From NCBI RefSeq assembly GCF_045037415.1, contig NZ_CP173438.1: a DNA stretch of 64,000 bases. One strand, given 5' to 3'. Source of the stretch: Escherichia coli. Its GTDB lineage: Bacteria; Pseudomonadota; Gammaproteobacteria; Enterobacterales; Enterobacteriaceae. Below, in pieces: positions 33,185 to 38,750 of the stretch; within the stretch, counting starts at the first letter, position 1, and each line of letters begins with the position of its first letter. A program made the position numbers and the translations under genes. The notes beneath the pieces were generated by a model. It made no database searches and was not told where the DNA came from. It worked only from the letters and a program-made list of their open reading frames with translations.

Positions 33185-33351
33185 TGTTTTTATTTATTCA
33201 ATGAATTTATATTTCGTCGAATAGATAACATTTACCTGAATATTAGACGCTGGTTTTGTGACTGATGTCGGATATTTGAATGTCGGCTTGAAAAATAAGC
33301 CGACCATCTCTTTAATTAAGCACAATTCCGTGTAATGTATACGCATTAGTT

Positions 33352-33386
33352 AATCATCTTGTAACTGTTAAATCAGGCAAGGCAAT
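33352..33386 (+). promoter_or_regulatory. RAT-like (ribonucleic antiterminator) element partly overlapping the leader terminator
   Basis: TCTTGTAACTGTTAAATCAGGCAAGGCAA resembles the RAT consensus as I recall it (..TTACTG.TAAAGCAGGCAAAACC); sits immediately 5' of and overlapping the terminator stem. Confidence 0.55.
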
Positions 33387-33430
33387 GTTTGAAGTAGTTA
33401 TTACTTCTGACGTGCCTTGCCTTTTTTTTT
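33374..33430 (+). terminator. Leader terminator upstream of the antiterminator/PTS operon
   Basis: Stem CAGGCAAGGCA...TGCCTTGCC followed by T9, ending about 12 nt before the GGAG RBS of the antiterminator. Confidence 0.7.
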
Positions 33431-33441
33431 GGAGCCATGGA

Positions 33442-34266
33442 ATGATCATCGAAAAAGTCATGAACAATAATTGTGTACAGGCATCGATGAATGGACAGGA
33501 GGTTATCATTTCTGGGCCTGGCGTCGGTTACAACAAAAAATATGGAATGTCGGTCCCTGAGCATCCGGCTAACCGGATTTTTTATGTCAGAAATGAACAA
33601 AAAAACAAACTCTATAAATTGATTGAACATGTAGATATTGAGTATGTGTTTGTTGCCGAAAAAATAGTGCAATATGCGGAGAAAAATCTCGAAAAAAATC
33701 TCAATCCATCGCTACTATTGATTCTTGCGGATCACATTTCGAATGCAATATCCCGAGTCGCTTCAGGTATACAAATTAATAATGTTTTCCTTGATGAAAT
33801 CAAAGCGTTGTACAAAGCAGAGTATGCGATAAGTCGCGATGCATTAACTATCATTAATGAGCAATTCAGCGTTCAACTTCCTGATGATGAGATTGGTTTT
33901 ATAGCATTGCATATTTTAAATAATTATGAAAATTCAGTTGATTATGAATCAGTACGAATTATTGAGTTGTCGCAAATAATCACGGGGCTTATTGAAGTTG
34001 TTTATAACAGAAAGGTGGACAGAAGTTCATTTAACTATTCCAGATTTATGATGCACCTTAAATATTTTTCAAGTCGCGTGTTATGCAATGAAGAAATAAA
34101 ACAGAAAGATATTGGTGATATCTATGAACAGTTTCTTGAAAAGGACATCCTGTTACAGCGCGCAATTCATGAAATTGAACGGTATCTGTATGCCACTTTT
34201 AAATATGAATTAATTTTAGAAGAAAAACTATATCTCTCTATTCGTACCAAAGTATTAATGGACTAA
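33442..34266 (+). CDS. BglG/LicT-family transcription antiterminator (CAT RNA-binding domain plus PRDs)
   Basis: Start MIIEKVMNNNCVQASMNGQEVIISGPGVGYNKK aligns with the BglG/LicT N-terminus (MKIAKVINNNVI...); the ORF-track start at 33385 lies inside the leader hairpin. Confidence 0.75.
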   Translation: MIIEKVMNNNCVQASMNGQEVIISGPGVGYNKKYGMSVPEHPANRIFYVRNEQKNKLYKLIEHVDIEYVFVAEKIVQYAEKNLEKNLNPSLLLILADHISNAISRVASGIQINNVFLDEIKALYKAEYAISRDALTIINEQFSVQLPDDEIGFIALHILNNYENSVDYESVRIIELSQIITGLIEVVYNRKVDRSSFNYSRFMMHLKYFSSRVLCNEEIKQKDIGDIYEQFLEKDILLQRAIHEIERYLYATFKYELILEEKLYLSIRTKVLMD

Positions 34267-34297
34267 TTATATATAACATTTATATGAGATAACCCAC

Positions 34298-35878: not shown

Positions 35879-37053
35879 TGGATGTTTTTAATACTCCTGT
35901 TTCCCGCAAAGGAACATATTGTACCCAATGGGACTTTTGCGAGGACAGATTTGGTGTAAAAGATGTACTACCATTCTCTATTTCAGATATGGATCTTCCG
36001 ATACCAGACGCTATCACCAGAGCATTAAAAAAACGCCTGGAACACCCGATTTTAGGGTACAGTCGTTGGCAACATGGTGAATATCTGAATGCGATAGTAA
36101 ACTGGTATTATCAACAATATCAAACAGATATTAAACCTGAATGGATAACCTATAGCCCCAGTGTGATGTACTCTATTGCAAAAGCAATAGAGTTATTGAC
36201 ATCGCATGGTGATAATATTCTCGTTTTTACACCTGTCTATAATGCATTTTTTGATGTAATTAAACATAGCGAGCGAAATATTCTGACAGCCTCTTTGATT
36301 ATAAAAAATGAGGGGAGCTACGCTATCAACTGGCAAGATTTTGATCTTAAGATTAAAAGCGCAAAGATGGTGTTATTATGTAATCCTCATAACCCGACAG
36401 GAACAGTCTGGTCGGAAGAAGAACTGCATAAAATCGCTGCAAGCTGTACAAGGCATAATGTCTGGTTATGTTCAGATGAAATCCATAGTGATTTTGTTTT
36501 TAATCGTAGCTTTACATCCGCGCTTAAAATAAAAAAAGAAAAAGTAGTAGTATTTAACTCGATATCGAAAACATTTAATGTTCCTGCACTAACAGGATCG
36601 TATATGATTTCAACTGACGATAATTTTAATCATAAGTTCAGAACGATATCGAGGTATCGCGATTTTGTAAACTCCCCATCAGTACTGAATATAATTGCAA
36701 CTATTATTGGCTATAACGAATGTGAGGGATGGTTAAAGTCATTAAAGGCACATATTGCCTCTAACATTCAATTCACCCAGCAGTATCTGAATGAAAATAT
36801 TCCAGAATTGATCGTAAGGCCAGCTGATGGTTGCTATTTTTCCTGGATAGATTGTTCTGCTATTGGTTATCCTTTTGATGAATTCTACAGTCGATTAATT
36901 CATGAAGGCAAAGTGGGCATTATGGCGGGGCATGTCTATGGAACGGAGGGGGAGGGCTACCTTCGTCTGAACCTGGCCTGCAGTCGAGAAAAATTATATA
37001 TGGGGCTTACGCGTCTTGTGAGTGTAATTAAAAATATTAATCAGGGAGAATAA
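35878..37053 (+). CDS. PLP-dependent C-S lyase / aminotransferase class I (MalY/PatB-like)
   Basis: 391-aa ORF; class I aminotransferase-fold features; gene pair resembles malX-malY. Confidence 0.7.
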   Translation: MDVFNTPVSRKGTYCTQWDFCEDRFGVKDVLPFSISDMDLPIPDAITRALKKRLEHPILGYSRWQHGEYLNAIVNWYYQQYQTDIKPEWITYSPSVMYSIAKAIELLTSHGDNILVFTPVYNAFFDVIKHSERNILTASLIIKNEGSYAINWQDFDLKIKSAKMVLLCNPHNPTGTVWSEEELHKIAASCTRHNVWLCSDEIHSDFVFNRSFTSALKIKKEKVVVFNSISKTFNVPALTGSYMISTDDNFNHKFRTISRYRDFVNSPSVLNIIATIIGYNECEGWLKSLKAHIASNIQFTQQYLNENIPELIVRPADGCYFSWIDCSAIGYPFDEFYSRLIHEGKVGIMAGHVYGTEGEGYLRLNLACSREKLYMGLTRLVSVIKNINQGE

Positions 37054-37055
37054 AA

Positions 37056-37652
37056 ATGAATAACACGGATCTTATCCATCTCATTAAACATTTTATGCGT
37101 AACGAACATAAAGCAGTTGAAGAAGTTATTGATTCCCCTCTTTCGGAGGTCGCAAATTTAATTAAAGTATTACAATCTTGTCAGGGAAAAGTTGTTTTTA
37201 TTGGTGTTGGTAAGTCCGGTATTATTGCCAGGAAACTCGCCGCAACATTTGCCAGCACCGGAACTCCCTCGTTTTTTGTTCACGGTACGGAAGCTGTACA
37301 CGGCGACCTTGGAATGGTGGCGAAAGACGATGTTGTTATTCTTATTTCAAACAGTGGTGAGACGGCGGAAATCCTGGCGACACTGCCTAGTCTGAAAAAA
37401 ATGGGTAATTATTTGATCTCTTTTACCCGCAGTCACCACTCATCGCTTGCGATAAGTTGTGATTTATCTGTTGAAATCCCCGTCAAAAGTGAGGCGGATA
37501 ATTTAGGTTTAGCACCGTCATGCTCGTCGACTGTTGTTCTGGTTGTTGGTGATGCGGTGGCGCTTGCACTCTCTGAATTGAAAAAATTTACTCGTGCTGA
37601 TTTCGGCTTATATCATCCAGGAGGTGCACTCGGCATTAAAGCAAATTCATAA
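37056..37652 (+). CDS. SIS-domain phosphosugar isomerase/binding protein
   Basis: 198-aa ORF with VVFIGVGKSGIIARKLAATFASTG (SIS phosphosugar-binding motif). Confidence 0.7.
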   Translation: MNNTDLIHLIKHFMRNEHKAVEEVIDSPLSEVANLIKVLQSCQGKVVFIGVGKSGIIARKLAATFASTGTPSFFVHGTEAVHGDLGMVAKDDVVILISNSGETAEILATLPSLKKMGNYLISFTRSHHSSLAISCDLSVEIPVKSEADNLGLAPSCSSTVVLVVGDAVALALSELKKFTRADFGLYHPGGALGIKANS

Positions 37653-37714
37653 TTTCAAAATATAAATACAGTAACCGGTCACGCCATCTTTTGGGGTGGC
37701 GTTCTTTGAAGTGA

Positions 37715-38671
37715 GTGTCCGCTATGAAAAATGTTCTGGTCACCGTCCCCAGCTTTTCAGCACGCTGTGTTTCCGCCAGCAAGTTGCTAAGAGAGAATAA
37801 TTTTAATCTTATTATTAAGAATAATGTGGAGCATCTGCTTAAATCAGAATCCACTGCATTACGAGAATCTATTTGCGCGGTCATCGCCGGAAAAGATTGT
37901 TATCAGGCGGACACGCTATCATTGCTGTCTGGTGTGAAAATAATATCGAGATTCGGGACGGGGATAGACAATATTGATCTTCGTGCGGCACAGCAATCCG
38001 GTATTGTTGTCAATAATGCGGTTGGGATTAATTCAAATGCGGTTGCGGAATTTATCATTGGACTTATCTTCGCGAGCATGAGAAATATCCCTGGCAGCTA
38101 TCATGCGATGCAAAATGGCTACTGGGGTGAGTCGCATGGCTGTGAATTACAAGGGAAACGGATTGGCCTGGTTGGCTACGGTAATATAGGTAAAATTCTG
38201 GCGAAAAGGTTATCCGGTTTTGATGTTGAGCTTTTAGCTTTTGACAAACAACCCGACTATCAGGTTGCTGACAAAGCTGGAGTTCAGTTTGTATCAATTG
38301 AAGATATCTTTATGCAGTCGCATGCCATCATTGTTCTTTTGCCTTTTTCTTCTGAGCTGGAGAACTTCATTAGTCATAAATATTTGTCGATGATGCGCAA
38401 TGGTGCTCTGATCATCAATGCCGCAAGGGGAAAGTTGCTGGATGAGGGCGCTTTACTTCAGGTGATTGAAGAACGAAATGTGTTTGCGGCGCTGGATGTG
38501 TTTAGCTCTGAACCGTTGGCGCAATTTAGCCCACTGCTACATGCCAAAAATATCATTACAACGCCGCATATTGCGGCCGCCACCGTTGAGTCATACCAGC
38601 AAACCGGGATACACGTTGCCCAGTCGATAATTGATTACTTCGCAGGAAGGAAGATAAAAAACGTGTTGTGA
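37715..38671 (+). CDS. D-isomer-specific 2-hydroxyacid dehydrogenase (NAD-binding)
   Basis: 318-aa ORF with GLVGYGNIGKILAKRL Rossmann motif; start may be the internal Met at 37724. Confidence 0.7.
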   Translation: MSAMKNVLVTVPSFSARCVSASKLLRENNFNLIIKNNVEHLLKSESTALRESICAVIAGKDCYQADTLSLLSGVKIISRFGTGIDNIDLRAAQQSGIVVNNAVGINSNAVAEFIIGLIFASMRNIPGSYHAMQNGYWGESHGCELQGKRIGLVGYGNIGKILAKRLSGFDVELLAFDKQPDYQVADKAGVQFVSIEDIFMQSHAIIVLLPFSSELENFISHKYLSMMRNGALIINAARGKLLDEGALLQVIEERNVFAALDVFSSEPLAQFSPLLHAKNIITTPHIAAATVESYQQTGIHVAQSIIDYFAGRKIKNVL

Positions 38672-38750
38672 GTTCAGCGAACAAAGATTTTAAATACAAA
38701 AAAACCGCAATTTGTAGAACACATTGCGGTTTGTCAGCATTCTAATAAAT

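Follow-up and report, generated by a model that had tools for sequence, protein, structure and literature searches.

Closest described systems

In uropathogenic Escherichia coli (UPEC) strain CFT073, the genes c3405-c3410 of the pathogenicity island PAI-CFT073-metV have been listed among UPEC-retained sets as a 'PTS system, maltose/glucose specific' (PTS, phosphotransferase system; PMC2831201). The pafR and pafP genes of this locus have been linked to fitness in urinary tract infection (UTI), with pafR as a regulator of the metV island, and the loss of pafR or pafP impairs mouse UTI (PMC8882828); secondary literature calls PafR an antiterminator of the metV island. Here, we analysed a 64,000-nucleotide stretch of E. 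coli contig NZ_CP173438.1 (RefSeq assembly GCF_045037415.1; hereafter, the window), which carries five co-directional genes, here called the paf operon, downstream of amiC. The locus is the same as that of CFT073 in position, gene order and flanking genes (amiC at one end, VasL and type VI secretion system (T6SS) genes at the other); the proteins are 97-99% identical, the 257-nt leader differs at about one base, and the differences are allelic only. The operon is, hence, an already-described locus of a known regulatory kind and not a discovery. From the combined evidence, we consider it likely to be a self-contained operon for PTS uptake and catabolism that was acquired horizontally and is governed by an antitermination switch of the Bgl type. 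The points added by our analysis, i.e., a variant ribonucleic antiterminator (RAT), a composite island and a conserved four-gene core, are incremental.

The bglGFB operon resembles the paf operon in that a gene for an antiterminator with PTS regulation domains (PRDs) comes first, a RAT overlapping a terminator precedes it, and the cognate enzyme II (EII) follows. Both BglG and PafR have three conserved PRD histidines and lack the fourth, and the two loci have in common a high AT content and poor expression in vitro. However, bglG is separated from bglF by another RAT/terminator, whereas the pafR-pafP gap is 31 nt and contains none; PafP, a MalX-like EIICB, has no EIIA, in contrast to BglF, a beta-glucoside EIIBCA; and the bgl RATs have a basal GGA...ACC helix, which the paf RAT does not. 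Furthermore, PafR scores higher on the NCBIfam models of LicT (226 bits against a curated cut-off of 300) and GlcT (178 against 320) than on those of BglG (104 against 322) and LacT (96 against 500).

In the glcT-ptsG systems of Bacillus and Staphylococcus, as in the paf operon, an antiterminator governs a glucose-family EII. The lower stem of the GlcT-type RAT (CGUG/CAUG) is contiguous with no GG/CC base, as is the CUUG/CAAG stem of the paf RAT, and GlcT is the second-best NCBIfam match of PafR, though under the cut-off. The glcT-ptsG RAT lies between the regulator and the transporter, whereas the paf RAT precedes the regulator. The pair of EIICB and C-S lyase, in the same order, is found in malI-malX-malY of K-12 (42% identity to MalX and 36% to MalY), but that system is controlled by the LacI-type repressor MalI rather than by antitermination and has no isomerase or dehydrogenase partners. 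The paf isomerase shares the SIS catalytic domain of KdsD, GutQ and KpsF (E 1e-48 to 1e-58; solved relatives 2XHZ, 3ETN and 3FXA) but does not have their C-terminal tandem CBS domains.

Layout of the locus

The gene order in the window is recD (28460-30286), argA (30368-31699, minus strand), amiC (31841-33184) and then the paf operon, with convergent type VI secretion genes on its 3' side. The five genes are intact open reading frames (ORFs) on the plus strand (33442-38671), and the ORF list agrees with RefSeq calls in identical or near-identical genomes. The tight spacing of the genes (31, -1, 2 and 71 nt) is consistent with a single transcription unit. The G+C content is 34-43% in the five-gene block against ∼52-56% in the flanks, and at the counterpart site of K-12 only 74 bp separate amiC from the tRNA gene metV. 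The original prediction, made from the window's letters, had proposed five co-directional genes of these families, absent from K-12 and not part of the conserved backbone. The intact ORFs, the profile annotation of all five proteins, the 74-bp K-12 spacer and an occurrence in 31% of complete E. coli genomes (see below), i.e., not in all of them, agree with this. Its description of the operon as inserted after amiC is right as to the site, which is the amiC-metV spacer, and incomplete for this genome, where a T6SS island has been added between the operon and metV. The coordinates of the features are collected in Table 1.

Table 1. Coordinates of the features of the paf locus (window positions unless a locus handle is given).
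Feature	Coordinates	Strand	Basis or context
TGTGA-N6-TC block, CRP-half-site-like	33257..33272	+	∼85 nt upstream of RAT
Block GTGTA..GT.T...CAT.AGT just 5' of RAT	33330..33350	+	invariant columns across leaders
RAT core with stems CUUG/CAAG (lower) and CUG/CAG (upper), internal loop UAA/G and loop UUAAAU	33358..33381	+	
Intrinsic terminator: hairpin 33375-33422 plus U9 (33422-33430)	33375..33430	+	folding, covariation
pafR (c3409 equivalent), BglG/LicT-family PRD antiterminator, 274 aa	33442..34266	+	Pfam domains, NCBIfam, CFT073 match
pafP (c3408 equivalent), glucose-family PTS EIICB, 526 aa, no EIIA domain	34298..35878	+	Pfam
MalY/PatB-family pyridoxal phosphate (PLP)-dependent C-S lyase (c3407 equivalent), 391 aa	35878..37053	+	TIGR04350
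SIS-only KpsF/GutQ-type sugar-phosphate isomerase (c3406 equivalent), 198 aa	37056..37652	+	KdsD/KpsF/GutQ models, PDB
D-isomer-specific 2-hydroxyacid dehydrogenase (c3405 equivalent), 315 aa	37724..38671	+	2-Hacid_dh_C, 2-Hacid_dh
Hairpin AACCGCAAT-N11-ATTGCGGTT	38703..38731	.	A-run before, T-rich after; kept in E. coli variants with metV directly next
14-nt copy of the tRNA-fMet metV 3' end (GGCCCCCGCAACCA on the minus strand)	38751..38764	-	operon/T6SS island junction
Four-gene Enterobacter-type loci	L007 7119-11291; L015; L023 7231-11403		

The leader: a RAT overlapping a terminator

Using the pattern TTGTWACYG-N4-8-CRGGCAA, which is the core common to the two K-12 bgl RATs, we found one match in the window, where 0 are expected by chance, with the RAT-like core TTGTAACTGTTAAATCAGGCAA at 33359-33380. 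We then built a covariance model from 61 distinct RATs, all from operons unrelated to paf, of 46 of the 79 LicT-like antiterminator loci collected from species-representative genomes. The training set was free of paf-type sequence; nevertheless, the model is not fully blind, as the regular expression by which its RATs were chosen also matches the paf site. With filters off, the sole significant match in the window was at 33359-33381 (23 bits, E 3e-5; the next had E 0.16), and it covered positions 4-26 of the 29 positions of the model. Neither the pattern nor the model found a second RAT in the operon or in the window. Scanned against Rfam (E up to 10), the leader gave only noise, RATs being covered by no curated family. 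The contiguous lower stem of the paf RAT is like that of the GlcT/ptsG-type RATs of two loci (L059 and L064) in the same collection.

The RAT hairpin alone folds at -4.7 kcal/mol, and the terminator hairpin reaches -27 to -35 kcal/mol; against shuffles, the z-score of the 116-nt leader is -3.5. The 3' half of the RAT (33375-33381, 7 nt) is also the foot of the terminator stem. Enforcing the RAT changes the minimum free energy of the leader from -28.0 to -17.8 kcal/mol, a cost of ∼10 kcal/mol, and leaves a residual hairpin that stops 6 nt short of the U-run. In these folding models, the two structures are mutually exclusive, which is the logic of a protein-stabilised antiterminator. A RAT-like sequence (33352-33386) overlapping a strong terminator (33374-33430) had been proposed beforehand; folding of the leader, with 7 nt common to two alternative structures, bears this out, and both intervals were accurate to a few bases.

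The leader accompanies the operon in every orthologous locus, including those at other chromosomal sites, and the RAT model matches each orthologous leader exactly once. Both the RAT and the terminator are kept with compensatory changes across four genera. In 9 distinct orthologous leaders, 7/7 RAT pairs are kept, with one compensatory change from G-C to A-U. The terminator has 20 pairs, which are 92.9% kept, 5 of them changed on both sides; its covariation score was reached by 0/500 shuffles, and slid controls of the leader covariation collapse.

One could suppose that the RAT is there by chance and that the hairpin with its U-run is the terminator of amiC or a leader-peptide region beginning at the in-frame ATG 33385. 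A terminator is indeed expected after amiC, and the ORF finder carries the antiterminator frame back to 33385. Nevertheless, we regard this explanation as highly improbable: besides the chance expectation and the model E-value given above, the element travels with the operon to sites away from amiC, a separate hairpin at 33282-33304 lies closer to amiC, Enterobacter-type leaders do not have the in-frame extension, and the substitutions are RNA-compensatory. Moreover, pafR starts at 33442 and not at ATG 33385 of the ORF finder's list, because the N-terminal domain of the protein aligns from residue 1 of this start and RefSeq calls the same start; ATG 33385 sits within the terminator and is not conserved across orthologues. 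The start codon of pafR is overlapped by a two-codon mini-ORF (ATG GAA TGA, 33437-33445; ATGnAATGATC), which reads ATG AAA TGA in other genera and is kept in Escherichia, Atlantibacter and Citrobacter and not in the Enterobacter type. This mini-ORF may simply be part of the ribosome-binding region.

Upstream of the RAT, conserved blocks were found. In the block TGTGA-N6-TC, TGTG is invariant and TC is kept in the leaders of Escherichia, Atlantibacter, Citrobacter and a metagenomic copy (L011); judged by its letters, it may be a CRP half-site. The block just 5' of the RAT is a candidate for, and probably contains, the -10/start region of the promoter, with a weak fit to consensus.

A beta-glucoside RAT of Cytobacillus gottheilii (L024, 8908-8975) has the internal 22 nt (TTGTAACTGTTAAATCAGGCAA) identical to the paf RAT, and the layout of that locus is also RAT-terminator-antiterminator. 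This is consistent with a regulatory module of Firmicute-like origin. The Cytobacillus locus itself was set aside, its operon being of the ordinary beta-glucoside type, and the clostridial best homologue (P0021) was ruled out as an orthologous system, as its operon, with a BglF-type EIIBCA and an ADP-ribosylglycohydrolase, is unrelated.

The encoded proteins

PafR has an N-terminal co-antiterminator (CAT) domain (CAT_RBD, PF03123, residues 1-55, E 2.8e-14) and a first PRD (residues 73-160, E 7.8e-24) in Pfam, and its residues 57-269 align with the LicT structures of PRD1 and PRD2 (1TLV/1H99). By its profile scores, PafR is a member of the BglG/SacY (LicT) family and an equivalog of no named protein. 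Its residues His98, His157 and His205 match H100, H159 and H207 of LicT. The position of LicT H269 is Arg in PafR of the Escherichia/Atlantibacter/Citrobacter clade and His in the Enterobacter-type orthologues; the fourth PRD histidine is also missing in K-12 BglG (Asn). PafR is identical to the CFT073 protein at 270/274 residues. According to secondary sources, Baum et al. (2014) reported RNA binding and antiterminator activity for PafR.

PafP consists of PTS_EIIC (14-353) and PTS_EIIB (452-484) domains in Pfam, and its phosphorylatable cysteine is Cys469 in NCVTRLR. With 42% identity to K-12 MalX and scores below the MalX equivalog cut-offs (533.6 against 632.2 and 521.8 against 665 bits), PafP is, by sequence comparison, a paralogue of MalX and not a MalX equivalog. 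The C-S lyase passes the curated cut-off of TIGR04350 (PatB; 363.3 against 340 bits), its closest solved structure is MalY (1D2F; 36% identity to K-12 MalY), and its PLP lysine is in the SISK motif (residues 228-231).

The dehydrogenase has the NAD motif GYGNIG and scores 217 bits on the PGDH model, under the cut-off of 454. Its start is most likely ATG 37724 rather than GTG 37715. It is the most divergent gene relative to CFT073, with 10/315 residues differing, against 3-4 in each of the other four proteins. The gene is missing in the Enterobacter version of the operon and is split or uncalled in some Atlantibacter contigs. These features suggest that the dehydrogenase is under weaker constraint.

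The isomerase has no CBS domains, and the KdsD/KpsF/GutQ models match in the SIS part alone, below all three cut-offs (192 against 203.7 bits), covering positions 23-201 of the 328-position KdsD model. It is the SIS-only variant already solved for the CFT073 locus (PDB 5UQI): it matches the 198-aa chain of PDB 5UQI/5VHU end to end (E 4e-123) and is identical to the CFT073 protein at 195/198 residues. The protein is a putative arabinose-5-phosphate/ribulose-5-phosphate isomerase, an activity reported for c3406 by Mosberg et al. (2011). The operon could be non-catabolic, supplying arabinose-5-phosphate for Kdo, lipopolysaccharide or capsule in the host, with the transporter mainly a sensor. The fit of the SIS protein to the KdsD/KpsF/GutQ catalytic domain and the reported activity speak for such a role. 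We consider it improbable, as E. coli already has KdsD and GutQ, plus KpsF in capsulated strains, and the conserved linkage with an EIICB and a PLP lyase better fits uptake and breakdown. As for possible substrates, glucosaminate-like, 2-keto-6-phosphogluconate and S-glycoside pathways were considered; none was backed by any result, and no substrate is proposed.

Proposed switch and its alternatives

In the uptake and catabolism reading that we prefer, transcription would start shortly 5' of 33358 and stop by default at the terminator. PafP would be phosphorylated via enzyme I, HPr and EIIA-Glc (Crr), which also serves PtsG and MalX. When idle, PafP would phosphorylate PRD1 of PafR (His98/His157) and thereby keep PafR inactive; during sugar transport, PafR would be dephosphorylated and dimerise, and its CAT domain would bind and stabilise the weak RAT hairpin. 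The RAT would capture seven bases of the terminator-stem foot beside the U-tract, allowing polymerase to read into pafR, pafP and the lyase, isomerase and dehydrogenase genes, with positive autoregulation. The sugar-phosphate produced by PafP would then pass to the PLP enzyme, dehydrogenase and SIS isomerase, and the reported interconversion of arabinose-5-phosphate and ribulose-5-phosphate could link the route to the pentose-phosphate pool. Our analysis shows the gene families and the two leader structures with their overlap and conservation; how phosphorylation governs PafR, the requirement for Crr and the pathway are inferred, and induction of the operon by its own PTS substrate is predicted by analogy with bgl, licT and glcT. 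In all four genera, the regulator is linked with this transporter and these enzymes, which speaks for a metabolic unit.

Several observations weigh against this reading. Canonical LicT/BglG RATs have a basal GG/CC helix and a first internal loop (GGA...AACC), both of which are missing from the paf RAT; its flanks are AUC...GGCA at these places, and positions 1-3 and 27-29 of the model remain unaligned, so the affinity of a LicT-like CAT domain for it is not guaranteed. The covariation of the RAT amounts to a single evolutionary event, with the other six pairs invariant, and the second PRD of PafR (184-251) is weak in Pfam (E 0.03). A sigma-70 scan found no convincing plus-strand promoter upstream of the RAT, and the conserved blocks there are likewise insufficient for a confident promoter assignment. 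The enzyme set matched no nameable pathway. Finally, a secondary source indicates that PafR expression is apparently limited to in vivo conditions and does not occur in urine; secondary sources also report that no inducing condition was found in vitro.

Some of these observations could instead point to a cryptic or host-restricted locus, in which PafR acts mainly in trans on genes for virulence, biofilm and motility, rather than as a switch by which sugar induces its own operon, and the RAT/terminator silences the operon outside the host. According to secondary sources, the expression of PafR, apparently in vivo only, alters virulence, biofilm, motility and capsule genes. The weak promoter match would also fit, and the region is AT-rich, like the H-NS-silenced bgl operon. 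We hold this to be the less likely explanation, though one of some weight: the model finds no other RAT in the window or in the orthologous loci, and the linkage of regulator, transporter and enzymes is constant in four genera. The two readings are not mutually exclusive.

The locus is among the few metabolic gene sets repeatedly tied to extraintestinal E. coli, with a reported effect on mouse urinary-tract colonisation. The mapped RAT/terminator switch could be mutated to force expression of the operon for substrate screens.

Orthologous operons in other genera

The site is the same in Atlantibacter hermannii, where the operon sits on its own between amiC and mltA. Citrobacter sp. FP75 and related metagenome contigs carry it elsewhere, near rnt/rnhA. 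Downstream of one metagenomic five-gene copy (L011 6500-8450) lie genes for an IS1 transposase and an integrase-type protein (Arm-DNA-bind_3), a hint that its context is mobile. Enterobacter sp. ENT03 and its relatives carry a four-gene version beside fruBKA, without the dehydrogenase and with a PafR identity of 43%. This four-gene core narrows which of the enzymes are essential.

A bolder proposal is that the core (antiterminator, MalX-like EIICB, MalY-like PLP enzyme and SIS-only isomerase) constitutes an undescribed PTS route from a host-derived sugar or conjugate to pentose phosphates via arabinose-5-phosphate. The dehydrogenase would be optional, the enzyme of C-S lyase/aminotransferase fold would act on a phosphosugar derivative and not on cystathionine, and the RAT without a basal helix would be a PafR-specific recognition variant. 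We offer this as a speculation that is rather unlikely to hold in full; if true, the identity of the substrate would explain the benefit of the locus to E. coli in the urinary tract.

Distribution in E. coli and structure of the island

Of 5426 complete E. coli genomes, 1689 carry the operon (31%), nearly always single-copy and chromosomal. The alleles of the 5.5-kb block fall in classes of at least 99%, 95-99% and 90-95% identity, and ST131-type genomes match the window at 100% identity. In two genomes of a 92-94% class, the operon stands alone between amiC and metV-metW-metZ without a T6SS.

The sequence of the window departs into the T6SS cluster past the 14-nt metV copy. The T6SS island is roughly 27 kb long and carries VasL, tssE, tssJ, tssG and further genes on the minus strand (38971 onward). 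In CFT073, the T6SS cluster has intact metZWV at its distal end. A tRNA scan of the window found none, metV being just past its end, and the intact tRNA genes must lie there, as in CFT073. The operon is on the amiC side of the metV repeat, i.e., outside the bounds of the T6SS island and not in the tRNA-to-repeat interval of PAI-metV. Because it lies outside the repeat that bounds the T6SS island and occurs without the T6SS in other lineages, PAI-metV is a composite of a tRNA-integrated T6SS island and the PTS operon of the amiC-metV spacer, which is separate from it and distributed more widely. This amounts to recognising the operon as a module separate from, and older than, the T6SS island with which it is usually lumped. 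Around the five genes, a search for direct and inverted repeats gave only short chance-level pairs and no insertion scars. The hairpin at the end of the operon is likely a bidirectional terminator.

In E. coli HS-02 (L020 5500-9611), the amiC-metV spacer holds an unannotated remnant of ∼4.1 kb, 75.8% identical to the 3' 60% of the operon. With no ORF above 105 aa and no RAT in it, the remnant seems to be what decay has left of a divergent allele. In strain R10 (NZ_CP107162.1), an IS1A is inserted in an otherwise 100% identical operon, which matches in two pieces with an annotated IS1 transposase within the match. In the neighbouring T6SS cluster of CFT073, tssF (L021 19164-20922) is annotated as frameshifted.

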